From Myxococcota bacterium (GTDB taxonomy: Bacteria > Myxococcota_A > UBA9160 > UBA6930): a stretch of 64,000 nucleotides of DNA. Each line of letters starts with the position of its first letter. Within the stretch, counting starts at the first letter, position 1. Shown here piece by piece: positions 29,064 through 40,909 of this stretch. The position numbers and the translations under genes are program-made. The notes below the pieces were generated by a model, which saw only the letters and a program-made list of their open reading frames with translations, had not been told where the DNA came from and did not search any database. Where the stretch lies: positions 4,640,001 through 4,704,000 of the forward strand of contig OZ245002.1 in NCBI GenBank assembly GCA_965223415.1, written 5' to 3'.

Positions 29064-29139
29064 GCGCGAGTAGCTCAGTTGGTAGAGCATCGGCTTCCCA
29101 AGCCGAGGGTCGCGGGTTCGAGTCCCGTCTCGCGCTCCA
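29064..29139 (+). tRNA. tRNA-Gly(CCC)
   Basis: 76 nt; acceptor GCGCGAG/CTCGCGC, D-loop AGTTGGTA, anticodon loop TTCCCAA, GGTTCGAGTCC, encoded CCA. Confidence 0.97.
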
Positions 29140-30460
29140 GGAATCCTTCGGGTTTCCGAACGGTTGCGGTGCGGCGTGTTCGCGGGCGACCAATGCGAGC
29201 GTGGCTGGTGCCGAATATTGCCGAATGGGGCCGACGAGTGGGCTCCGCCGGCGGCTCCGCGAAGGAGAGGTCGACCTCTTCTTCGGGCAGCACGTGCGCG
29301 TAATCGCGCAGTACGAGGCGACCGTCGGAGTGCCCGAGCTGGGCAGCCACCCACAGCACGTTCCGGCCTGAGGCGAGCGCCTTGGAAGCGTAGTAGTGCC
29401 GGAAGCAGTGGAAGCCGAGCTTGCGGACACCGTGCTTGTCTCCGGCCACCCGTCGGATGCGATCCCACGACCGCTGGAAGTTGCGGTCCTCCATCGGGCC
29501 GCCGGCCGCAGCCGGGAAGACCCACTTGGGGACTTCAGGCCAGCCCATGTCGAGGCACTCTCGACGTCGCTGAGCCAGCAGTTCTCGGAGAAAGGCCGAT
29601 AGCGACATGGGAATCGCGATCGTCCGGGCTTTGCCGTTCTTCGGCGTCGTCTCACGGCCCCGAACGATCGCGCGCCGGATCGTCACGCGAGAGCGCTCGA
29701 AATCGACGTCCGTCCACTGGAGCCCGAGGATCTCGCCCTTCCGGCAGCCCGTCCCCACGGCGAAGCGGAGCACGGGGTAGAAGGGCCGCTCATGGAGGCG
29801 AAGTCGGGCCTTCCGGTACGTGTCCTTGCTCATGTCGTCGGGTCGATCTCCCCGAGCCCGATGGATGGTGCCTTCTCGCGTCTTCGCGAGGGACAGGAGG
29901 GTCGCGACCTCTTTGTCCGTGAAAGCGTCAACCTGGCGGGCCTCCTTGGATTGGCCCCGGGCGACCCGCTCGATCAGCTTGCCCACGTGGGCCACCGGAT
30001 TCCGCTGGATGAGTTCCTCCTCCATGGCCCAGTAGCAGGCCGCGCGCAGGGTACTGAGGACCTTCAGGATCGTCTTGGGGCCCAAGTCGGCCTCGACCTT
30101 CGCCCGGATGAACTCCTGGACGTGGCTCCGCTTGAGTTGGTCGATGGGCAGCTCGCCGAAGGCAGGCACGAGGTGCTTCTTGATGTCTCGGGAGGCGGTA
30201 ACCCGATGGCTCTCCTTGAATTGCAGCTCATGTAGCGCGTACCAACGATCGAGAACGGCCTTCACGGTCGGAGTGTCTTCGTCAGCATCGGCCCAGGAGA
30301 ATTCGCCTGCTGCGATGAGGCCGTTGATTCGCGCTGCGGCCTTCTCGGCGGCCTCGCGGTCGGCCTTCCGGGTCCCGAAGAGCTTCACGCGCCGTCGGTA
30401 GCTGTGATTGACTACCAGCCAGAACTTGCCCTTGGCGTCCTGCTTGACCTTGGCACTCAT
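29075..30460 (-). CDS. int: Tyrosine recombinase/integrase
   Basis: Catalytic R (GCRKGE), K (TPKNG), HCFRH, LGH, Y (DYAH); ORF reads through attL into the tRNA antisense. Confidence 0.95.
   Translation of the reverse strand: MSAKVKQDAKGKFWLVVNHSYRRRVKLFGTRKADREAAEKAAARINGLIAAGEFSWADADEDTPTVKAVLDRWYALHELQFKESHRVTASRDIKKHLVPAFGELPIDQLKRSHVQEFIRAKVEADLGPKTILKVLSTLRAACYWAMEEELIQRNPVAHVGKLIERVARGQSKEARQVDAFTDKEVATLLSLAKTREGTIHRARGDRPDDMSKDTYRKARLRLHERPFYPVLRFAVGTGCRKGEILGLQWTDVDFERSRVTIRRAIVRGRETTPKNGKARTIAIPMSLSAFLRELLAQRRRECLDMGWPEVPKWVFPAAAGGPMEDRNFQRSWDRIRRVAGDKHGVRKLGFHCFRHYYASKALASGRNVLWVAAQLGHSDGRLVLRDYAHVLPEEEVDLSFAEPPAEPTRRPHSAIFGTSHARIGRPRTRRTATVRKPEGFLERETGLEPATLGLGSRCSTN
29095..29141 (+). 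repeat. attL core (47 bp)
   Basis: TTCCCAAGCCGAGGGTCGCGGGTTCGAGTCCCGTCTCGCGCTCCAGG, identical to 39960-40006. Confidence 0.95.
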
Positions 30461-30711
30461 AGGTCTCTCCCTTCGGGGTGCCGCCTCACGAATGCGCGGA
30501 CGGCCCGTCTCAGTGCTTCGTGAACAGAGATGCCTTGGCGTTCGGCGATCGCCTGGAGCGCGCCATCGACAGGGCGCTCCAAGTCGACCGAACGGCGTTT
30601 CAGGTCCCGCTGAAGGGCAGGGCGGCCAGCACCTGTCCTTGCGCCGCCACGCCCGATGCCTCGGCTCTTCGTCACAGGGATGAGTATTGCCTCTCCGTTT
30701 GAATTATTCAA
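30457..30711 (-). CDS. Small ribbon-helix-helix/CopG-like DNA-binding protein (start uncertain)
   Basis: RGGARTGAGRP followed by RSVDLE...LQAIAERQGISVHEALRRAV; stop overlaps int start. Confidence 0.6.
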   Translation of the reverse strand: MNNSNGEAILIPVTKSRGIGRGGARTGAGRPALQRDLKRRSVDLERPVDGALQAIAERQGISVHEALRRAVRAFVRRHPEGRDL

Positions 30712-30714
30712 TGA

Positions 30715-30957
30715 CTACGCCGACATGATATCCGTGATGGCCCGGTCAATCCGGTCTGCCTCCTTCTCTGCGAGGTTCTCGGTCAGCCAGTCTTCGAGGG
30801 CCTTGACGGGGATCAATACGACACCGCCGGCACGAATGTGAGGCAGGGCGGGGAGCATCTCTCGGAGCTTTCGTTCGCTCACTCCGAGTGCCCTTGCGGC
30901 TTCGCCCGGGCGAAGCGCGAGGCGCTCATCGAGCCTGGGCAGCGGCTCGTCACTCAT
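30715..30957 (-). CDS. Excisionase-like HTH protein
   Basis: LALRPGEAARALGVSERKL...LPHIRAGGVVLIPVKALEDWL. Confidence 0.75.
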   Translation of the reverse strand: MSDEPLPRLDERLALRPGEAARALGVSERKLREMLPALPHIRAGGVVLIPVKALEDWLTENLAEKEADRIDRAITDIMSA

Positions 30958-31095
30958 TGCACCACCGCCTCCCGCATAGCAAAGAGGCCATCCGCCACGA
31001 GCCGGCGGGCGGGCTGTGGACACGGGCTTTCTCAAGCGGCATGGCCTCGCCTGCTCCCTCACGTTCGAAATCGGCAGCCTCGCGAGAATTCTCTT

Positions 31096-32949
31096 TCATG
31101 GGAGTTCCCAGACCCAGGAGGAGTTTGGGGTGCCCTTTGGCTTCCTGGAAACGACCCCTAGTTGCTTCTTGGCCCGTTCGACCGTGTGCCACGCTAGGCC
31201 ACGCTTCTCGGCGTCGGCCTTGAGCCATGGCTGCGCCTTAGGCCCGTCTCTTAGAAGCTCGCGCAGGAAAGCTGCCGCCTCGTCCAGCTTCTTCGGACGC
31301 GAGCCCTTGGGTGCGGCGAGTGCAATCTCCTCGGCGTGGAGATCGACTTCGCCCTGCCATGAGAACACGCCGTCTTCGATGGCGAAGGCGAGCGAGGGGC
31401 CCATCTGGGCAAGATTTGACTTGGCATGTGCCAATACTCTGGAATCCACATCCTCGGGGTGTTGCGCTACGAGCAGCGCCGAGCGAGCTGCGGCTATGAA
31501 GTCGACAGACCCGAGCGCCCGGTGGATGACCTTCACTGCTTCAGCTTTCCGGAGGTGCCCGATCGGGACTACGGCGCAGTTCTGCCGTTCAGCCATGCGG
31601 GCGAGTGCGGCCAATAGGGGTCGGATGTCGTTCGCTTTGTGGAAATCGACGCCAGGGCCCAAAAAACCTTGGACCGGGTCGATAACGAGAAGTGCAGCGG
31701 AGCGTTCGGACACTGCGCTCTCGATCATCTCAACATCTGCCAGAGAGACCGGCCTCTCCTTGCCGTTCGATTCCCTGATGTGGTCGAGGATGTGGACTCG
31801 CACCAGGTCGGCCCCGAGTGATTCGAGGCGCGGGCGGAGAGTGTCGGCGATGCCGTCCTCCGCGGTTAGGAAGATCACATCCGCCCCGCTTGGTTCGGTC
31901 CCGAACTCGCCCTTCGACACGCCCGCTGCGATCGCCAGCGCGAGCCATGTCTTACCTAGGCCCGGGTCCCCCATCAGCAGTGTCAACTTCCGGAGCGGGA
32001 TGTAGGGATGCCAGAGCCAGGAGACGTCCTCGGGCTCCACGTCCGCGACGGTCACGAGGTGGGGAGTGCCTCGCCGATCAAGGAGCTGTTCGGGCGGCGC
32101 GTGCTCCGGAGGCGGCTGCTCCTCGGTCGCTGCGCATTGGCCGTTGGCCCAAGGTATGCCCAGCCACTCCGCAGCTTTCCTGACTACAGGCTCCGCAATG
32201 ATCGTCGCGAGGTGGGGAGCGCCCCGCACCGGGCTACCCCTGCGCAGCTTCTCCTGCGTAGACTCGCAGTTCCGCGCGCGCGCGCTCGCTTCCTCGTCGC
32301 CTGCCGCTTCGGCCACCGCGCCAACGAAGGAGTTGACGTCGGGCTGCTCCCATCCGGCCCGCAGGAGCATCCCGGAAAGCGCGAGTGTCGCATCGTGACG
32401 GCCACCAGGGTCGGGATGGTGTTTGGCCAGAAGAGAGGCGGCGGCCAGACGAGCCGCGGCCGCCTCTAGGGCGTCGGCTGGCACCTCGGCCGGGAGGTTG
32501 TTCTTGGATTGCCACTCGTAGCGCTCTCCCGAAGGGTGGCAGGAAGGCGGGACGACAGTCTGGGCACCGCCTGCGCGCAGCTCGACCAGACAGGCCCCAT
32601 CAGAGGGGTCGCGAAAGCGCCTCGTCTTCCCATCCATCGACCGAAAGAAATGGTGGGATGCAGGAGCGCCGCGCCGACCAGCGACCCATTCAGTCGCAGG
32701 CAAGAAGCGACGGGCGAGCGCACGAGCGCACGGGGCATCCAGGTCGATGTCGACCAGGTCGCCACTCCGGGGACCCAGGAGCACACCGAGGTTGGCAGCC
32801 CCGTCCCGTAGATCCCTGCGCAACGCATCGTCGGTAGGGTCGTAGTTCGGCCAGTCTGATGGAATCGGGCGCTTGCCGCGGGCAACTACTGGAATCGGCA
32901 GCATCCCAGCATTCCTCAGCCGCAAGGCCTCCACGAGCAGCTCACCCAT
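31096..32949 (-). CDS. Bifunctional primase-polymerase fused to a RecA-like (AAA_25/RepA) helicase
   Basis: Prim-Pol motifs GKRP, NLGVLLG, LVDIDLD, VVPPSCHPSG..YEW; Walker A GDPGLGKT, Walker B LLVIDP; KSNL. Confidence 0.85.
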   Translation of the reverse strand: MGELLVEALRLRNAGMLPIPVVARGKRPIPSDWPNYDPTDDALRRDLRDGAANLGVLLGPRSGDLVDIDLDAPCARALARRFLPATEWVAGRRGAPASHHFFRSMDGKTRRFRDPSDGACLVELRAGGAQTVVPPSCHPSGERYEWQSKNNLPAEVPADALEAAAARLAAASLLAKHHPDPGGRHDATLALSGMLLRAGWEQPDVNSFVGAVAEAAGDEEASARARNCESTQEKLRRGSPVRGAPHLATIIAEPVVRKAAEWLGIPWANGQCAATEEQPPPEHAPPEQLLDRRGTPHLVTVADVEPEDVSWLWHPYIPLRKLTLLMGDPGLGKTWLALAIAAGVSKGEFGTEPSGADVIFLTAEDGIADTLRPRLESLGADLVRVHILDHIRESNGKERPVSLADVEMIESAVSERSAALLVIDPVQGFLGPGVDFHKANDIRPLLAALARMAERQNCAVVPIGHLRKAEAVKVIHRALGSVDFIAAARSALLVAQHPEDVDSRVLAHAKSNLAQMGPSLAFAIEDGVFSWQGEVDLHAEEIALAAPKGSRPKKLDEAAAFLRELLRDGPKAQPWLKADAEKRGLAWHTVERAKKQLGVVSRKPKGTPNSSWVWELP

Positions 32950-33424
32950 CGCCGTTCTCCGGCGGAATCCGATTCCCGGCCAACGACCGCTCGATATCGT
33001 CCGCTACGCGGCGAAGGACCGAAGCCCGTGGTTCGGCCGGATCGCCGTCCGCGACGGCATCGAGGACGGTGGCTGCTAGTTGGAGGGGGTCAGGAAGCGG
33101 TGAGGGACCGTCAATGATTTCGAACGGCGTGATGCCCTTGACCGGGCGCCAAGGCTCGATCGGAATTCGCACCGTCTCCTCGCCGAGGCCGACGACGTCC
33201 ACCTCAATTCGATGGGGGTGGGGTGCTCTCCCGCGAGGCGGACGGGTCGTGGCGTCGTCGATACGATAGCTCCGGAGCCGGAGGTCAGAGCGGTCGAGCT
33301 GAAAGGCCTTGCGCACGATTCGAAGGAGGCGGGCTGCGAAGGTGGCAACACCCTGGTTGGCGGGAATGTGCCGCCGGGCGATGTTGGAGGAGGCCGTGCG
33401 CCTTGTTATTCTGTCGTTGGACAT
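32942..33424 (-). CDS. Hypothetical protein of the island
   Basis: ORF with GAGGA RBS; stop overlaps the primase start. Confidence 0.5.
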   Translation of the reverse strand: MSNDRITRRTASSNIARRHIPANQGVATFAARLLRIVRKAFQLDRSDLRLRSYRIDDATTRPPRGRAPHPHRIEVDVVGLGEETVRIPIEPWRPVKGITPFEIIDGPSPLPDPLQLAATVLDAVADGDPAEPRASVLRRVADDIERSLAGNRIPPENGDG

Positions 33425-33498
33425 TCGTTCCTCGTGAGGGCGTCGCTGCATGTGGTGAAGTGCGACCGCGGCGCCCTCCGTGTGTGCGGTGGGGGTTG

Positions 33499-33714
33499 CT
33501 AGGAATCCTCGCTGGGCGCGCAGCCCACAATCGGAGTCAACGGGGGGCGCCGGCTCGCACTAGGCCTGCCCGGAGCGCTGCCCCGCCTGCCGCTTTCGAT
33601 CTGCTCTGCGAGGTGGCGTCGCACTTCGGCGAGCAGGCCCGGGTCTCGGGTGCGCCCGAGCACCTGCACGGCGCCGCCGGGCTCAGCCCAGCGCAGAAGG
33701 GTGAGTTCGTCCAT
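33499..33714 (-). CDS. Small hypothetical protein (71 aa)
   Basis: Strong GGAGGA RBS 7 nt before ATG; same strand as the replication module. Confidence 0.5.
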   Translation of the reverse strand: MDELTLLRWAEPGGAVQVLGRTRDPGLLAEVRRHLAEQIESGRRGSAPGRPSASRRPPLTPIVGCAPSEDS

Positions 33715-33846
33715 GGGATCGTCCTCCTAGGTGAAGCGAGTGGTCAGTTCGTCGCTTCACCTAGGAGAACGGCAGCGCACCCAGGTCTTGGGACACGAGG
33801 GCGCGCTTTTTCTGAGGAGGGCTTCCCTGGGGGGCAGGCTTGGGGG

Positions 33847-34884
33847 CTAGCCGAGGGAGGCGCGACGGCGGAGCGAGTCCCGCCACGGCTCCACGCGCCG
33901 CCGGATCTTCCTCTCCAGCGACCGGTCGCCGGCCGTGGCCTCAGCCCAGGTGGCGCCCTGCGTTCGAGCCTGGAGCACCGCCAACTCGCGTCCGCGCAGG
34001 TCAGCAAGCGCCGCCACCTCGGCCACGAGCGCGTTCATGCTCGCCTCGTCCTGGGCGGCGTCTGCGATCAGGCCCAGCTCGCTGGCGTTCGCCTCGTCGG
34101 AGATGGAGAGGAAGGTCAGGGGCGGCTCGGCGGGCTCGGTCGCCTCGTCCCCCTCGGCGGGCTCGCCCTGCTCCTCCGCTGCGCGCCTACCGACGAGTGC
34201 GCGGTAGTCGTCGATCGCCTTCCGCACGGCTGCCTTCTCGACGTATTCGCGGGCCTCCGGCTGGTCCATCCCCGAGAAGATGTCGGAGCGTTCCTTCGAA
34301 GAGACACTCCACATCCCACGCAGCAAGGCGTCCCGGCCGTCGAGGTCGCCGTTCCTCGGGAACTGGAGGCGCCCGGCGATCCTGCTCGGCGTCGCTCCCA
34401 GCCCCGAGGCCGCGAAGTCGAGGGTGGCGCTCCCGGTCGGGTCCCCCTGGCAGAGCATCGTCGCGAGCTGGATCAGGTGGCTCTTGGAGATTCGCCAGTA
34501 CAGGGCGGCATCGAGCTGCATGCGGAACAGCTCGAAGGCCGCCTCCGCCGAATCCACAAGGGCTCGCCCCGTGGCCGGGTCAACGGACTTGACCAGACGC
34601 AGGAAGGCCGCCTTGAGGGTCTCGAAGAGGTCGCGGAACGAGTCGACGGCCTCGTCTAGCGCGTTCCACGCACCGAAGGCGGAGCCGACCTGGGGGCCAG
34701 CGGAGCGGCCCCAGGCGAGGGCATCCCGTGCGTGGTCGTGTGCCTCGAAGACGGCGGTGTGCGCCGCCGTGAGCCTTAGGCTCTCGGACCTGCACGCTGC
34801 CAGCGCAGCGAGAAAGTCCGCGAACGCACGCTCGGGTGCCCCGTCCCGGACGTCCCTCGACTCTCGGCTTTCGAGATCATCCAT
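33847..34884 (-). CDS. Hypothetical protein with a degenerate ECF-sigma-like C-terminal half
   Basis: YVEKAAVRKAIDDYR (region-2-like) and ALADLRGRELAVLQARTQGATWAEA (region-4-like). Confidence 0.5.
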   Translation of the reverse strand: MDDLESRESRDVRDGAPERAFADFLAALAACRSESLRLTAAHTAVFEAHDHARDALAWGRSAGPQVGSAFGAWNALDEAVDSFRDLFETLKAAFLRLVKSVDPATGRALVDSAEAAFELFRMQLDAALYWRISKSHLIQLATMLCQGDPTGSATLDFAASGLGATPSRIAGRLQFPRNGDLDGRDALLRGMWSVSSKERSDIFSGMDQPEAREYVEKAAVRKAIDDYRALVGRRAAEEQGEPAEGDEATEPAEPPLTFLSISDEANASELGLIADAAQDEASMNALVAEVAALADLRGRELAVLQARTQGATWAEATAGDRSLERKIRRRVEPWRDSLRRRASLG

Positions 34885-35107
34885 GCCGCCGCTCCCGCGA
34901 CGCTCCTTGGGGGCGCGGGCCAGGCGCGGGAGCAACGCGCGTTTCGGGTGCGACCGTAGGCACGCCACCCGAGACATAGCGGTTTCGGCCGCGGAAGAAA
35001 TCGAAAATGAATTCGAGAATTCCTTTGCTAGGCGAAACGGGAACCCCCGCGGGGGTCTTGCGCCTTCGCACTGCGAGGCCGGACATGAAGACCGCCGCCG
35101 CCGCTAG

Positions 35108-36377
35108 CAGGCTGCTGAAATTCGGCGCTGAGAGGCGCCAGAACGCCAGAGGGCGCGGGTCCCCGCGGCCCGCTCGGCTCGCTCTTCGATCCCGGAAGCG
35201 ATCCGGGGTACCTCGTCTCGATGCAGGTGCGTCATGTGACCTCTACGAGGTTGCGTATGCGGACCAGGTTGTAGACCGCCGCCGTGAAGACGAACATCCA
35301 CCCGACCCGATCCGTGCCCCGGTGACGCGTCTTTCGCATTCCCCCGACCGTCTTCATCCAACCGAAGCACTCCTCGATCCGCTTGCGTTTGTGCTGGCTG
35401 ATCGCGTAGCCCTCGTGACGGACCGTGCGACCGTCGATCCGGCTGGCCCGATTCGTCGTGTGCTGCGCCACGTGCGGCGTGATGTTGCGCTTCCGGCAGC
35501 CCGCCACGAACTCCTCGGTGTCGTAGCCCTTGTCCCCGCCCAGCGTGATCCGGCGCCTTCCCGCCACGTCCTCCGCCATCTCCAGCGCTGCCAGCCGCTC
35601 GGCGTAGCCATCGGCCTCCGTCAGCAGCGCCGAGACGATCAGGCCGTTGCGGTTCTCCGTCAGCAGATGGCCCATGTAGGCCAGCTGCGAGGTCTGGCCC
35701 TTCTTGCGCGCCAGCCGCGCCTCGGGATCCGTCGTCGATTCGTGCGTCGCGTTGCTCCGCCGCTCTCCCCGAAAGTTCACCGTCGGGTTGCCCGGATCGT
35801 CGTCTCCGTCGTCCCCCGAGCCGTCCTTCGCCCGGAAGCTCTTCTGGCTCGCCCACGCCTCGATCAGCGTGCCATCCACCGTGAAGTGCTCCGACGACAG
35901 AAGGCCGTGGTCCTTTCCCTGCGCCAGCACCGCCTCAAAGAACGCCTCCGCCACGTCCCCTTCCAGCAGCCGGTCCCGGTTCTTCGTGAAGACCGTCGGG
36001 ACCCAGACCGCATCCTCCATCCCCAGCCCTACGAACCAACGGAACAGCAGGTTGTACTCGAGCTGCTCCATCAGCTGGCGCTCACTCCGGATCGAGTAGA
36101 GCACCTGCAGCAACAGAGCCCGCAGCAGCCGCTCCGGTGGGATCGACGGCCGGCCCGTCGACGCGTAGAGCTCCGAGAACCGCCGAGACAGGCCCCTCAG
36201 CGCCTCGTCCACCATCGCCCGCATGGGGCGAAGCGGATGATCCTCCGGAATCCGCGTCTCCAGCGAGACGTAGCTGAACATCGAACCCTGCTCTCGGTCG
36301 CTGCCGCGCATCCTCTCTCCCCCCGACCCATCTTCTACCATCGAGAACACGGAAACGCAGGGTTTTTCAGCAGCCTG
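35108..36377 (-). mobile_element. IS5-family insertion sequence, copy A
   Basis: TIR CAGGCTGCTGAAA/TTTCAGCAGCCTG, flanked by CTAG on both sides (35104-35107, 36378-36381). Confidence 0.92.
35232..36311 (-). CDS. IS5-family DDE transposase
   Basis: IPEDHPLR, GRPSIPPE, NLLFRWFVG, VDGTLIEA, GDKGYD, RKRIEECFGW. Confidence 0.93.
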   Translation of the reverse strand: MRGSDREQGSMFSYVSLETRIPEDHPLRPMRAMVDEALRGLSRRFSELYASTGRPSIPPERLLRALLLQVLYSIRSERQLMEQLEYNLLFRWFVGLGMEDAVWVPTVFTKNRDRLLEGDVAEAFFEAVLAQGKDHGLLSSEHFTVDGTLIEAWASQKSFRAKDGSGDDGDDDPGNPTVNFRGERRSNATHESTTDPEARLARKKGQTSQLAYMGHLLTENRNGLIVSALLTEADGYAERLAALEMAEDVAGRRRITLGGDKGYDTEEFVAGCRKRNITPHVAQHTTNRASRIDGRTVRHEGYAISQHKRKRIEECFGWMKTVGGMRKTRHRGTDRVGWMFVFTAAVYNLVRIRNLVEVT

Positions 36378-37001
36378 CTAGGCGGTGCGGTTGGCGGCCT
36401 TGGCGATCTTCGCCGGCGCGCGCGCCCCGTATTGGCGCGCTAGACGGGCGACCGCCTGGAGGTGAAGCCGCGTGGCCACGTGCGCGCCGTATCCCGGCCT
36501 TTCGAGGTTGCGGTAGTGCTCGGACAGCGCGTCTTCGTCGGCCTCGCGGACAGCGGTGATCAGCCCGGACACCCTCGAATCCCAGGTCTGGGTGCTCCGG
36601 TAGGAGAGCGCTAGGCAGTGGCGGCAGCCGGCTCGCCTCCGGTGGCCGTTCACGAAGAGCCGTCGGGCCCGGCGCCCGCACCCAAGGGGACACTCCCAGT
36701 GCCAGCGGCGCGAGAAGCCGACGTCCACCTGGACGAGTGCGACTCGCAGCACGAAGAGGCCACCGGCGGCGGGGACGAGGGCGAGGCTGCCTTCGCGCCG
36801 GCCGCGGCCCAAGGGGCCCTCTAGGGCGAGGACAGCCCTGCTGCCGCAATCGGGGCCCCAGAGGCACTGGACGGTGCCCCGTACGGGGCCGTTCTCGAAG
36901 GAAGACGCCGAGGTTATTGCCCGCGCGTCGATCGCCATGGCTTCTTCAACCAGCGGCTTTTTCTCGTGTCTGGCCCAGCGGGTGCTGCCGATTCCCCCCA
37001 A
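36378..37001 (-). CDS. Uncharacterised Zn-ribbon protein (MGGxGS N-terminus, CPxxC...CRxC)
   Basis: TTG start giving MGGIGSTRW; WECPLGCGRRARRLF...CRHCLALSYRSTQ. Confidence 0.65.
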   Translation of the reverse strand: MGGIGSTRWARHEKKPLVEEAMAIDARAITSASSFENGPVRGTVQCLWGPDCGSRAVLALEGPLGRGRREGSLALVPAAGGLFVLRVALVQVDVGFSRRWHWECPLGCGRRARRLFVNGHRRRAGCRHCLALSYRSTQTWDSRVSGLITAVREADEDALSEHYRNLERPGYGAHVATRLHLQAVARLARQYGARAPAKIAKAANRTA

Positions 37002-37152
37002 GAGGCTGCTTCCTTTTTCCAAAATCTACACTTTGAAGGTAGGGAATTGATCGGGGTGTCGAAGGCCGCCAAGGAAGCCAACTCCAGCCGTGAGGAAACC
37101 TGGCGGCCTTCGTGCGAGGATGGATCTCCGCTAGGAGATCCGCGCACCAGGA

Positions 37153-38544
37153 GTGAAGGCAGTGATGGGCAAGTTCCCGACCTTGGTGCTCGCACTCGCA
37201 CTGGGGCCCACCGTAGTTGGGTGCGCGACGGTCCCCCGAGAAGCTGCCGACCTTCGGAAGTCCGCTCGCGAGGCGCTTGACCAGCCCCCGAGCGAGCCGA
37301 GATGCATCGTCGGCGTGGCGATGAATGCCGACCTGATCGTGATCCCGGGGCCGTCCGCCTACCAGGCCGGGATTCGCAAGGGTGATCGAATGCGGGGAAT
37401 GGAGGGGAGGCCCGCTCGAAACGCCGACGACTGGCACGCCCTTGCGCGTGCCAACTACGGCCGCGACAAGGTGACCATCACAGTAGAGCGCGACACCGAG
37501 GATCGGCGCGTGACTCTTCCTTGTCTTGACTCAGCCCAAGTGGACGAAGCGCATCGGCAAGTGTTGTTCGCCATCGCCAACGGGGAATGGCGAGAGTGTA
37601 TCTCGAAGATTCCAGAGCTGGAACGCTATCGAGGACGGGACGCCTTGACGATGCGGCTCCGCAACAATTGCAGCGACGTGCTTCGTCTGATACAGCGCCG
37701 CGCACCTACCCTGCAGGATGCCCATCTTGCCTATGAGGCCCGCCGTATACTCCTCGAAGAGGCGGTGCTAGGCGGGAATATCCCCAACGTCAAAGGCGAA
37801 GTCCTTCTCGCTATGCAATGGCTACGGTCGAGCGGGTATTCCCGTTTCGCTGAGGAGCTAGAAGCTCAGCTTGCCAAGGCAGAAGGCAATCGCCCAGAAA
37901 CCGGGCGCGAGCCGGGAGCCGCGGTTCGCCGAGTCTCTGCCGGATCCTGTTTCGCGACGAATGCCGGCCTAGTGGCGACCGCGTACCATGTGGTGGACCA
38001 GGCAAAGGAGGTTTCGGTTCACTTCTTTGGAGAGGCGCGCTCTCGTAGTGCACGAATCCGAGGATCCTCGAAGGCTACTGACGTTGCGGTCCTGGAGGTA
38101 GACGGCGGGCCCCTCCCCGGCACCTTGTCGTTGGTACCGCCCGGTGGCTCTCGTTCCGGGGTACGGATCTTCACGGTTGGCTATCCGGTGCCGGACTTGC
38201 TTGGAGAGGAACCGAAGTTCACCGAGGGTGTCATTAGTGGATTGTCCGGTCTTCGTGGAGATGCTGCGTTCATGCAGATCTCGGTTCCAGTACAACCTGG
38301 CAACTCGGGGGGGCCTGTAGTCCGTGAGGACGGCTTGGTGGTCGGAGTGGTCTCCTCGTCAGCGGCGATTCTTCCGTTCATCGAAGAAACGGGATCCCTA
38401 CCACAAGACGTCAACTGGGCCGCAAGGGCAGAATATCTCCGCCCGCTCCTTCCCGCATTCTCGTCAACGAAGGGACTGTCATCGCGCGACGAAGCGATCG
38501 AAGCGGCACGCCGGGCCGTGTGCGCAGTTGAGGCTATTCGTTGA
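37153..38544 (+). CDS. Lipoprotein with PDZ-like domain and trypsin-like (S1C) serine protease
   Basis: Lipobox VVGC; SAYQAGIRKGD PDZ-like; catalytic TAYHVV, TDVAVL, PGNSGGP. Confidence 0.85.
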   Translation: MKAVMGKFPTLVLALALGPTVVGCATVPREAADLRKSAREALDQPPSEPRCIVGVAMNADLIVIPGPSAYQAGIRKGDRMRGMEGRPARNADDWHALARANYGRDKVTITVERDTEDRRVTLPCLDSAQVDEAHRQVLFAIANGEWRECISKIPELERYRGRDALTMRLRNNCSDVLRLIQRRAPTLQDAHLAYEARRILLEEAVLGGNIPNVKGEVLLAMQWLRSSGYSRFAEELEAQLAKAEGNRPETGREPGAAVRRVSAGSCFATNAGLVATAYHVVDQAKEVSVHFFGEARSRSARIRGSSKATDVAVLEVDGGPLPGTLSLVPPGGSRSGVRIFTVGYPVPDLLGEEPKFTEGVISGLSGLRGDAAFMQISVPVQPGNSGGPVVREDGLVVGVVSSSAAILPFIEETGSLPQDVNWAARAEYLRPLLPAFSSTKGLSSRDEAIEAARRAVCAVEAIR

Positions 38545-39481
38545 GCCCGGGCTTCGACCCTTCAGCATCCGCCCCTTGCTCGCGCGGTCGTCGCAGGCCA
38601 AGCGAGACGGCTAGCAGCGAAGGCAGGGCAACTGCGAGCGCCGCCTCAGGCAGGTGGCGAAGTGCGATTGCGGGACGCAGGTAATGCTCTCGCGGGCGGC
38701 GATAGCCTTCGAAGTTCGCGAGATTGCCGATGTTGTTGCTGAGGTTCGCATGGACGGGTTTCAGCTTTTCTGCCGCATCCTCCAGCCACTTGTTGTAGTT
38801 GCGGTAGTTGTTGGAGATCCCGCTGGCCCGGATTTCCGCATCGCTAGACTGGAATAGCATCCCAAAGAGCAGCACGTAGGCGCCTGCAAGCGAGAGCCTT
38901 CGTGCCCCTCTGCTGCGAGGCTCTCGGACCGCATTCCAGCCGAGCCAACCCGCAATCAGGCCGAGGACCATCCACACCAAGTCTTCCGCTGGAGGAGAGG
39001 ACGCCCATCGAAGCCCGCCGACACGAGACCGTTGGAGGAACATCTGCGCCTCACGCAAGACCGCACGGGCGTCTTCGGTGATTGGACTGTCGACATCGTA
39101 GGCATATCGCTCGATGTGGGTATTCAGGACGAAGTCACTTGAATGAAAGGGGCTCATCAACCAAGAAGAGACGTAGAGGTCAGCGCCTCGGCAGAGACCG
39201 GCCAGGGCGATCGCCAAGACTACTGCGACATCAATCGGATAGTCGCTCCGCGTAGTCGCGAGTTCCCGTGTTTCGAGGACGAAGCGGTAGAGCAGGTAGG
39301 ACACTACGAGCACCAACGCCCCAGGCACCATATGTGGCCGTTCGAGGGCTGGGAGGACTCCGCCGACAGCTCCGCCAACCTTCGCGGGATCAACTCCAAT
39401 CCAGTCCCAGGCAATCAAGATCGACGCCCATAGCAGCAACTGCCTCCGAGACCGATCTCGCACATCGGATCTTGCCGCCAT
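38534..39481 (-). CDS. Hypothetical multi-pass membrane protein (island cargo)
   Basis: ORF from ATG 39481 with about six hydrophobic segments. Confidence 0.55.
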   Translation of the reverse strand: MAARSDVRDRSRRQLLLWASILIAWDWIGVDPAKVGGAVGGVLPALERPHMVPGALVLVVSYLLYRFVLETRELATTRSDYPIDVAVVLAIALAGLCRGADLYVSSWLMSPFHSSDFVLNTHIERYAYDVDSPITEDARAVLREAQMFLQRSRVGGLRWASSPPAEDLVWMVLGLIAGWLGWNAVREPRSRGARRLSLAGAYVLLFGMLFQSSDAEIRASGISNNYRNYNKWLEDAAEKLKPVHANLSNNIGNLANFEGYRRPREHYLRPAIALRHLPEAALAVALPSLLAVSLGLRRPREQGADAEGSKPGLNE

Positions 39482-39959
39482 AGTTGCTCCGACAGGGGCA
39501 GGTAAGAAGCTAGGTGTTCTGTCTCCTATGTGCCGTACATCTGGCGAAGGCCGTGGGTTCGCGAACCGCGGGTGCACGCCTTCGTCGTGACGAGCGGTAG
39601 CGGGCGTCGGAAGCAAGTCGCTCCGGGGGAGGAGGGGAAGCGCCCATGGGCAACCCCTGACGCGGCGAACGCTCGCCGCAATCCCCAAGATCCTCCATTT
39701 TTCGAGAGGTCCGAATGTCGAAGCCGAGGGGATGCCGTGTGGTGGGGCCCCGGGGGCCGATCGTGTTTCCGCCTGCTGCCGCCCCATGACGTGCGGGAGC
39801 CACCCGGGAGCCGTCGGCTCGTCGCGGGGGAGCGTGCGCCTCGCTGCTCGCTGCCGAATACTGCCGAATGCCGACGCGGCTGCCGCAGTCTGCCGCGATC
39901 CGCATTGGCTCGCAGAGCTGGAGACGCAAGCTCTCGCTAGTCCTCGTCCTCTTCTTCCG

Positions 39960-40006
39960 TTCCCAAGCCGAGGGTCGCGGGTTCGAGTCCCGTCTCGCGC
40001 TCCAGG
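39960..40006 (+). repeat. attR core (3' fragment of tRNA-Gly)
   Basis: Identical 47-bp copy of 29095-29141 without the tRNA 5' half. Confidence 0.95.
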
Positions 40007-40038
40007 GTTCACGAGCTGGCTCGCGCTCCCGCGCCGCC

Positions 40039-40909
40039 TCAGGCTCCGGGCCGAGGCGTCACCCGCTCCGGATGCCCCGACCACTGCCACGCCATGGTCG
40101 GACGCGACAGGCCGAGCATCATTCCGCCCAACGTGTCCGGGTGGAGGAACACGGTGTTCGCCTCCCCGCGGCGCCCTTCGGCCGGCGGCTCCGGGGTGTG
40201 TCCGGCGCCGAGCGATCGCGCGCGCTCTTCGATCCGCGGGAGGCAGGAGGACTCGGCGAAGGCCATGTAGAACGCTTCCCCGAAGCGGGAGAAGAAGCGT
40301 CCCATCGTCTTCGTGAGATCGTGGGGCGTGATGACCTCGAAGCGGCCGAGCTGGTCGGGGTCGAAGAGGGTGAGCGTCCCTGCGTAGCCGTAGTGCGCGG
40401 ACTCGATGGGCACGAAGGCACTGGCGTCGAGGGCGAACATCGAGGCGCAGGCGGCGGCGGCTCGGTCCGCGTCCGCGACCAGCAGAGTCGTCTCGTAGAA
40501 GAAGTCGACGTCCCCCAACGCGCTCGAGCGCTTCGTCGGGGCTCAACACGGTGCGAAAGCCCACCTGGCCCGAGGCCGCCGGGTCGATGAAGGCCTGGCC
40601 TCTCTCTTCAAGGCATTCGATTCCCTGGGCGCGCAAGTGGGCCACGAGGGCGGCGACGTCGTCGGTCGCCGCGCCCGCGGCGTAGAGCTGGGCGCCCCGC
40701 GAGGCCACGGCGTCCTGGATGGGCCCGGCGCCGTCGGGCTCGAGCAGCTCCAGGAAGCCGTTGCCGAGGCGCAGCCGGCTTCGACGCGCGCAGAGGGCCG
40801 CAACGCGATCCTCGCCCGCCGGCTCGGCGCCGAGCATCTCGATCCACCGCTTCGCCGCCGTGCCGCGATCGGGCACCGCCATCTGCAATCGGTCGACGCG
40901 CTTCAGCAA
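40039..40909 (-). pseudogene. Two-domain VOC/glyoxalase-like gene with a single-base frameshift
   Basis: N-part MLKRVDRLQMAVPD...LELLEP and C-part DFFYETTLLVAD...FEVITP lie in different frames, joined at the C5 run 40512-40516. Confidence 0.7.

Follow-up and report, generated by a model that had tools for sequence, protein, structure and literature searches.

An integrase gene overlapping attP in a tRNA-Gly(CCC) island of a Myxococcota bacterium, with a different predicted ending on each side of integration

We analyzed a 64,000-nt stretch of a Myxococcota genome (GenBank assembly GCA_965223415.1, contig OZ245002.1, positions 4,640,001 to 4,704,000), hereafter the window, which is numbered from its first letter and carries an integrative island in the gene of tRNA-Gly(CCC). 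The gene of the island's tyrosine integrase (int) does not end before the attachment (att) site but runs through it, and the stop lies past the crossover. This is a new case, in a different integrase family and in a non-phage island, of the kind of int/attP overlap known from myxophage Mx8. The reading that we favour, and to which we give somewhat better than even confidence, is that the integrase of this family is overlaid on attP with its stop beyond the crossover, and that selection acts on termination or on passage through attP rather than on the amino acids of the tail.

The sole tRNA gene in the window is that of tRNA-Gly(CCC), at 29064-29139 on the plus strand, predicted by ARAGORN in agreement with Rfam. 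A repeat search of the window returned an exact direct repeat of 47 nt, at 29095-29141 and 39960-40006, with a spacing of 10865. The left copy, attL, starts at the first base of the anticodon loop (29095; loop ttcccaa, with the anticodon at tRNA position 34), covers the 3' part of the tRNA gene and extends 2 nt beyond the encoded CCA. The 3' 45 nt of the tRNA gene come from the island side. The segment 29095-40006 is therefore described here as a 10.9-kb integrative element inserted in tRNA-Gly(CCC), with a crossover region that starts at the anticodon loop. The G+C content is 0.60-0.71 within the island versus 0.69-0.81 in the flanks. Directly past the right copy, attR, a 25-nt stretch (40005-40029) is 76% identical to the T-arm and acceptor end of the tRNA, with CTCGCGCTCC in common; it may be the remnant of an older displaced tRNA end, or chance.

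The integrase comprises an N-terminal three-strand sheet, a core-binding domain, a catalytic domain ending near residue 392, and a tail. The Phage_integrase domain (PF00589) matches residues 230-392 (E 6.6e-24), and 69 residues therefore follow the match; this tail overprints the P' arm, the att core and, in the 5' half of the tRNA gene, a further 20 nt. Residues R240, K274, H351, R354, H377 and Y387 are invariant in 27 aligned sequences, and we take these columns to hold the catalytic roles. The protein is a tyrosine recombinase by the presence of these residues in the Phage_integrase domain. From the catalytic domain through the whole 47-nt core the frame has no stop, and the open reading frame (ORF) ends in ...KPEGFLERETGLEPATLGLGSRCSTN. 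In the integrated form, translation of 29075-29140 on the minus strand gives LERETGLEPATLGLGSRCSTN and a stop, i.e., LERETGLEPATLGLG-SRCSTN, where the stop is a TGA in the antisense of the tRNA D-loop. The initial annotation of this DNA had described just such an ORF, without a stop before attL and running through the core to SRCSTN, and retranslation shows both its coordinates and its peptide to be correct. It had also followed the same frame beyond the core at the right end of the island. There, the attR copy (39937-40005, minus strand) is translated as LERETGLEPATLGLGTEEEDED and a stop, i.e., LERETGLEPATLGLG-TEEEDED in the same register, and translation of 39937-39960 on the minus strand confirms TEEEDED followed by a stop. 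A circle joined at the core would thus encode an integrase ending in TEEEDED instead of SRCSTN. Thus int lies with its 3' end over attP and has its stop beyond the crossover, so that the last 6-7 residues, and all the sequence after them, must be specific to each form.

The tail also carries repeats in the linker, the part that leads to the tRNA-derived core. Three GCCG tetramers at 29210, 29220 and 29230, exactly 10 bp apart, lie in the integrase tail, where they are translated as ...PHSAIFGT..., and the five GCCG sites near the other end of the island (Table 1) are oriented as these three. A 19-nt block, TGCCGAATAYTGCCGAATG, is found in the 64-kb window only at 29209-29227 and 39852-39870 (0 expected). 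As it is present at both island ends, one copy would lie on each side of the core in the joined circle. From their sequence and placement, the GCCG repeats are best read as P' and P arm-type sites of attP. CGGC[AC]CC-type repeats, 10-11 bp apart, occupy the same place in the linkers of most relatives. In one of them (L023), the arm motif GGCTGTACC is translated as R-L-Y-P within the linker and is found again, as tandem copies, past the core, and in two others (L012 and L082) arm sites flank the core on both sides. RxY(T/P)AP was considered as a protein motif and rejected: the peptide results from translation of the arm site, for which the window and the KRHPRGT group use another codon phase. 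In the AlphaFold model, strands at residues 2-7, 13-19 and 22-29 have predicted local distance difference test scores (pLDDT) above 89, and the modelled N-terminal three-strand sheet is of the kind that binds arm-type sites. An N-terminal arm-binding domain and arm-type repeats on both sides of the core are therefore both found here, as judged from model and sequence.

An open tail with this DNA composition is not rare, and in the window alone chance would often give it; the read-through is more than chance because relatives keep it. A word-indexed search found 54 protein homologues (38-61% BLASTP identity for the aligned set), and the query was aligned with 26 of the 29 best (27 sequences in total), leaving out the short P0013, P0028 and P0030. 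The tRNA T-arm and acceptor stem are read antisense at the end of 26/27 of the aligned integrases. The register that gives G[LFI]EP is used by 25/27; P0027 uses another register and P0026 stops earlier. Many homologues end in ...CSTN or ...RSTN, which corresponds to the D-loop stop and marks integrated copies, and others diverge at the anticodon loop, as attP-like junctions do.

Genome loci were also taken as DNA, independently of gene calling. Of the 193 same-order genomes searched, 49 gave a match at E <= 1e-30, and a scan of species-representative genomes gave 62 loci, with record titles mostly of Myxococcota or Deltaproteobacteria metagenome-assembled genomes. After identical tails, 13 rows failing the Tyr-motif pattern and two distant paralogues (L004 and L005) were left out, the final set consisted of 42 non-redundant loci with an antisense tRNA within 450 nt. 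Between Tyr+15 codons and the anticodon loop, 39 of the 42 loci have an open int frame, as against 17 and 24 for the two control frames. One register is common to 33 of the 40 scored loci, with Tyr-to-tRNA distances of 127, 130, 136, 139, 145, 148, 151, 157, 160, 163, 169 and 172 nt; at least twelve distances thus differ by multiples of three, and the outliers are 158 and 253 nt. Eight tRNA species are represented (Gly-CCC 10, Gly-GCC 10, Arg-TCG 7, Lys-TTT 4, Arg-CCT 4, Ala-GGC 3, His 2 and Arg-GCG 2), and the stop is either in the anticodon stem, 47 nt into the tRNA, or in the D-loop, 62 nt into it. Spacing by 3n and the excess of open int frames over open control frames have the look of a maintained reading frame, which points to a family trait and not to chance. 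The initial annotation had named homologues without conserved read-through as the finding that would speak against its proposal; read-through proved to be conserved, both in the aligned proteins and in the loci.

For comparison, 79 distant integrases from viral contigs (20-33% identity scan) were used as an outgroup. They have a median of 24 residues after the Tyr, and at least 50 residues in only 4/79. In the wider clade, 170 representatives of 50%-identity clusters match at E <= 1e-30, and 106 of the best 150 have the Tyr motif. The tRNA T-arm is read in the tail of 31 of these 106, in register A (13), B (14) or C (4), with median tails of 70, 67 and 92 residues, respectively. The register is thus fixed within lineages only, and this use of three registers weakens the case for selection on the G[LFI]EP register as such. 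Long extensions also occur: L070 reads 256 nt. A second integrase of the same family is present in this genome (L002/L003, G000:C1:1217036-1218274, 43% identity) and adjoins tRNA-Arg(TCG). Its L002 frame reads ...ARREGFEPPTPRFEAWCSIQLSYRR... through the whole tRNA and continues for 349 codons past the catalytic-domain match, in an open frame of 726 aa. A more distant integrase, L004 (G000:C1:5485911-5486411, 35-38% identity over the catalytic domain), adjoins tRNA-Val(TAC), and its frame likewise extends into the antisense tRNA, where a third register gives ...ARPDSNGGPPACKAGALAN followed by a stop.

The make-up of the tail differs from that of the catalytic part. For 55 pairs from 11 sequences of one subgroup, synonymous divergence (dS) is 0.17-1.19 and the ratio of nonsynonymous to synonymous rates (omega) is 0.33-1.47 in the linker, versus a dS of 0.78-2.6 (several pairs saturated) and an omega of 0.01-0.27 in the catalytic part. 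Over 39 loci, the catalytic part shows a GC of 0.69/0.54/0.82 at codon positions 1/2/3, and the linker a flat profile (0.645/0.622/0.663). Residues 393-461 have an AlphaFold pLDDT below 50, and the tail is predicted to be disordered. By these measures, the tail looks like a segment in which coding in the int frame is kept and the letters are constrained mainly as DNA, not as protein. The earlier notion of the tail as a signal at the protein level is not supported by these DNA-level signatures (dS, omega and codon-position GC) and the predicted disorder.

The acidic character of the ending in the excised form was examined separately. Acidic tails at attP-like junctions include TEEEDED in the window, TEEDTEE in L082, RENQPEEDQ in L012 and PPDDEK in P0029. 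Non-acidic ones include KRRVRQK, KPRDGKK, KRGFREREFALAA and QVSESGKVLKPIGFS, as well as long neutral tails of 21-44 residues. The strongly acidic tail, which the initial annotation had put forward as a feature that homologues might conserve, is therefore not general. Around 39937-39959 and the ~20 nt adjoining it, the window has 80% identity over 90 nt with the attP-like locus L082, where TEEDTEE is encoded and the stop has the same position. This similarity goes on past the stop (TTGCGTCTCC) and therefore points to conserved DNA, not to a conserved peptide; the acidic heptapeptide is probably a lineage-specific reading of purine-rich P-side DNA. It has to be considered whether the exchange of TEEEDED and SRCSTN is itself the signal, as a degron or a modulator of directionality. 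The three other acidic endings, among them the one in L082 with its matching stop, would agree with such a role, and mycobacteriophage BPs provides a precedent for C-terminal signals exchanged by integration (PMC4557955). We nevertheless regard it as rather improbable, given the basic, neutral and long tails of other attP-like forms and the likeness to L082 that persists beyond the stop. TTGCGTCTCC lies just past the attP-form stop, at 39910-39936 in the window and at L082:4420-4445, and its flanks could pair. A hairpin with TTGCGTCTCC as the loop was tried and was not better than shuffles in the window (z = +1.33). TTGCGTCTCC may be a protein-binding site of the P side.

According to a review (PMC6070905), Mx8 has its attP inside int, and integration creates a new 3' end that modifies the integrase and serves as a switch; recombination activity is reported there to differ between the two forms. 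Further examination of Mx8 Int (NC_003085, L035:5208-6809) revealed that it carries ...ARSTGLEPVLLG... about 109 residues before its end. The part ...STGLEPVLLG... inside this ORF is the tRNA T-arm, read in the same register as here and about 55-60 residues after the Tyr. The statement of the initial annotation that the Mx8 attP is within int is thus borne out by the Mx8 sequence, and the review concurs (PMC6070905). The two systems are alike in having a tyrosine integrase, a myxobacterial element and a core made of a tRNA 3' fragment at this distance from the Tyr within the ORF, in having a common register (here ...ETGLEPATLGLG...), and in the replacement of the C-terminus by integration. As in Mx8, the core is inside the integrase coding sequence, and integration would give int a new 3' end and its product a different C-terminus. 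They differ in that the free form has 7 residues past the core here and about 109 in Mx8, and in that the element is a 10.9-kb Prim-Pol island here and a 49.5-kb phage in Mx8. Mx8 Int matches the family profile with an HH probability of 97.3% and 22% identity over 265 profile columns, and by BLASTP it aligns only over a 63-residue segment with 27% identity. At 22% identity, it belongs to a different integrase family of the same superfamily, and the two proteins are not close kin. The Mx8 target is said to be tRNA-Asp, and figures of 112 and 13 residues have reportedly been given. When phages were searched by tblastn with the whole integrase, identity did not exceed 28% and the matches listed included no myxophage; with the 74-residue tail, phage tRNA genes alone were matched.

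Several other systems place attP in or near a coding sequence. In mycobacteriophage BPs, attP is inside the repressor gene; the longer viral form of the repressor has an ssrA-like tag, integration removes 33 residues, and the integrase of this phage also carries a C-terminal proteolysis signal (PMC4557955). Here too, attP is within a coding sequence and integration changes the C-terminus of a protein, which in BPs affects stability and activity as well; the gene crossed by attP is int here and the repressor in BPs. An integration-dependent immunity of the BPs type is not seen in the island, in which the ribbon-helix-helix (RHH) and HTH_17 genes are at least 1.3 kb away from the core. The SSV-type integrases of archaeal viruses and plasmids also have attP within the ORF (PMC7253208, PMC4383910). 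Unlike the SSV gene, which is split and disrupted by integration, the gene described here keeps its catalytic domain whole, because the core lies 49 residues past the end of that domain, and the extreme tail alone is exchanged; the SSV type therefore does not apply. In Cluster J mycobacteriophages, the core is about 100 bp beyond the end of int (PMC3706429). The island resembles them in having a tRNA-fragment core that starts at the anticodon loop, flanking pairs of ~10-bp arm-type repeats and an int gene transcribed toward attP (PMC3706429). It is unlike ordinary tRNA-targeting integrases in that int has no stop until past the core. The Islander method lets integrase ORFs overlap tRNA fragments because the Mx8 and SSV integrases extend across attP (PMC4383910).

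In the explanation that we favour, int overlies attP with its last ~70 codons, which lead from the catalytic Tyr through the P' arm repeats and the tRNA-derived core to a stop beyond the crossover. Integration replaces the stop together with the final codons and the 3' untranslated region: in its integrated form the gene ends in antisense tRNA (SRCSTN, D-loop stop), and in the excised circle it would end in element DNA (TEEEDED). Selection, as we infer it, would act on where translation ends, or on passage through attP, and not on the amino acids of the tail. With the stop outsourced to the partner DNA, frameshifts would give long junk extensions, such as those of L070 and L002, which selection would purge. 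This junk-extension reading leaves the rarity of early stops unexplained, and some benefit of the extension, or a dependence on state, is therefore likely. As in Mx8, the integrated and free states might give integrase or int transcripts of different level or activity. By this analogy a functional switch by state is plausible, and an RNA-level version, with convergent transcription into the tRNA gene and antisense pairing, is equally open. The recombination-driven switch suggested by the initial annotation is thus partly supported: its geometry and its parallel with Mx8 stand, the change is of only 6-7 residues here compared with about 109 in Mx8, and an effect on stability or directionality is hypothetical.

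A bolder form of the same idea, to which we give only tentative credence, is that a large clade senses the integrated or free state by means of a stop past the crossover, as a control of integrase supply written by recombination of which Mx8 is one case. Translation of integrated int would proceed against an active tRNA gene as far as a stop codon that the tRNA encodes, and that of excised int would finish within the element's own DNA, giving a short charged tail; the frame would be kept over the arm sites while the amino acids would hardly matter.

It might also be the 3' end of the int transcript that matters. Bacteriophage lambda offers a similar logic in sib retroregulation, in which integration changes what lies downstream of int. 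In the integrated state, int has to be transcribed and translated against an active tRNA gene, in antisense to the tRNA, which would leave less full-length int mRNA or produce non-stop messages, and the excised form would have its own stop and 3' region. Convergence of int on the tRNA and a stop past the crossover are the geometry that such a switch requires, and the apparent selection on an open frame and not on amino acids would fit either ribosome passage or a termination site. On the other hand, both states have the 47-nt antisense stretch, which leaves a difference of only about 20 nt, and the hairpin after the attP-form stop found no support. We consider an RNA-level switch of this kind unlikely.

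Several observations weigh against the view that selection acts on termination or passage. The linker of the window is open in all three frames. Of the 42 loci, three (L062, L078 and L088) end before the tRNA, and related loci are not independent, so that 39/42 overstates the count of independent events. In the wider clade, 75/106 representatives have ordinary tails, with a median of 36 residues, and the register is not fixed; read-through is therefore common but dispensable. The 349-codon extension of L002 means that a defined stop is not always kept. Flat codon-position GC and an omega near 0.5-1 do not support a protein-level function of the tail. Moreover, the excised form was not sighted in the public runs, in which contigs end inside the repeat, at 29089-29112 and 39977-39989, and neither an attP nor an attB joint was reported.

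Some of these observations are what a neutral by-product would produce. At 62-72% G+C, about 50 codons are often free of stops, int would simply run on to a stop in the tRNA, and the endings would have no consequence. The open linker frames of the window, the substitution and GC patterns, the predicted disorder, the 75/106 representatives without a tRNA-reading tail and the varying length and charge of attP-form tails would all be expected in that case. The same DNA, however, is open more often in the int frame (39/42) than in the control frames (17/42 and 24/42). The dozen linker lengths that differ by multiples of three also argue against neutrality, as does a tail three times the median of the 79 outgroup integrases. 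A purely neutral origin therefore seems distinctly improbable to us.

A search for public runs returned 7, none of them recorded as RNA, and runs X1-X4 were examined as contigs. In run X2, the island contigs (29112-39989) have depths of about 148 and 135, versus 42 for a 434-nt contig of the left flank, where contig depth is not copy number, and the right flank is almost without coverage. In the X2 sample the element may be elsewhere or free, and the contig depths are a hint only. A metagenome scan with the P-side junction motif returned 25 matches, all in unrelated coding DNA. The right flank was matched at 75-78% identity in 4 genomes of the same genus, with neither the tRNA nor the left flank in the adjoining 1.5 kb.

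We believe that family-wide evidence of a frame kept open over arm sites, without constraint on the amino acids, is new; a limited full-text literature search found no family-wide description of int overlapping attP and a tRNA. The layout is common in one integrase clade, being present in 31/106 cluster representatives and in 39/42 close tRNA-adjacent loci, and it holds an open frame over DNA that is otherwise constrained as putative protein-binding sites. It allows one to ask in a simple way if the position of the int stop matters for the stability of the integrated element. For annotation, gene calls of such integrases should extend through the tRNA, and island finders ought to permit an overlap of int with the tRNA fragment.

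Table 1. Positions of the island, its att sites and its genes in the window
Feature	Positions	Strand	Evidence
tRNA-Gly(CCC), integration target	29064..29139	+	ARAGORN; Rfam RF00005, 73.5 bits
Tyrosine integrase, 461 aa	29075..30460	-	ORF listing; Pfam Phage_integrase
attL, left copy of the 47-nt att core	29095..29141	.	Exact direct repeat and sequence
Putative attP P' arm, three GCCG-centred direct repeats	29207..29236	.	Sequence; repeat block also at the other island end
Ribbon-helix-helix (CopG-like) gene	30457..30711	-	Pfam RHH_1, E 2.1e-6
HTH_17 protein	30715..31062	-	Pfam PF12728, E 2e-6
Prim-Pol and AAA_25 replication protein of the island	31096..32949	-	Pfam, E 1.1e-16 and 1.5e-30
Insertion sequence inside the island	35095..36390	-	DUF772/DDE_Tnp_1 transposase 35232-36350 between 26-nt inverted repeats
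Cargo gene, PDZ and trypsin-like serine protease	37153..38544	+	Pfam Trypsin_2, E 4.5e-22
Putative attP P arm, five GCCG sites (39853, 39863, 39870, 39883, 39893)	39850..39899	.	Sequence
TEEEDED, seven codons and stop that would end the integrase in the excised (attP) form	39937..39959	-	Translation of 39937-39960(-)
attR, right copy of the 47-nt att core, displaced 3' tRNA fragment	39960..40006	.	Exact direct repeat and sequence

Besides the integrase, the RHH, HTH_17 and Prim-Pol/AAA_25 genes are all on the minus strand between the repeats. The end of the RHH gene overlaps the start of the integrase gene by 4 nt (ATGA, 30457-30460), which suggests translational coupling of this small DNA-binding protein with the integrase. 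The HTH_17 family takes in excisionase/AlpA-type proteins, which makes the HTH_17 protein a candidate directionality factor. No phage structural genes were detected among the island ORFs scanned with Pfam, and the island also holds some ORFs without an assignment. The insertion sequence has a contig depth 10-15x that of its neighbours and is therefore probably multi-copy in the sampled DNA. In addition, a 791-aa open frame on the minus strand (38534-40909) spans attR and the right flank. This frame is an artefact of G+C-rich DNA and misleading for gene callers; a membrane protein encoded in its 3' part, at about 38534-39260, is a plausible real gene within it.

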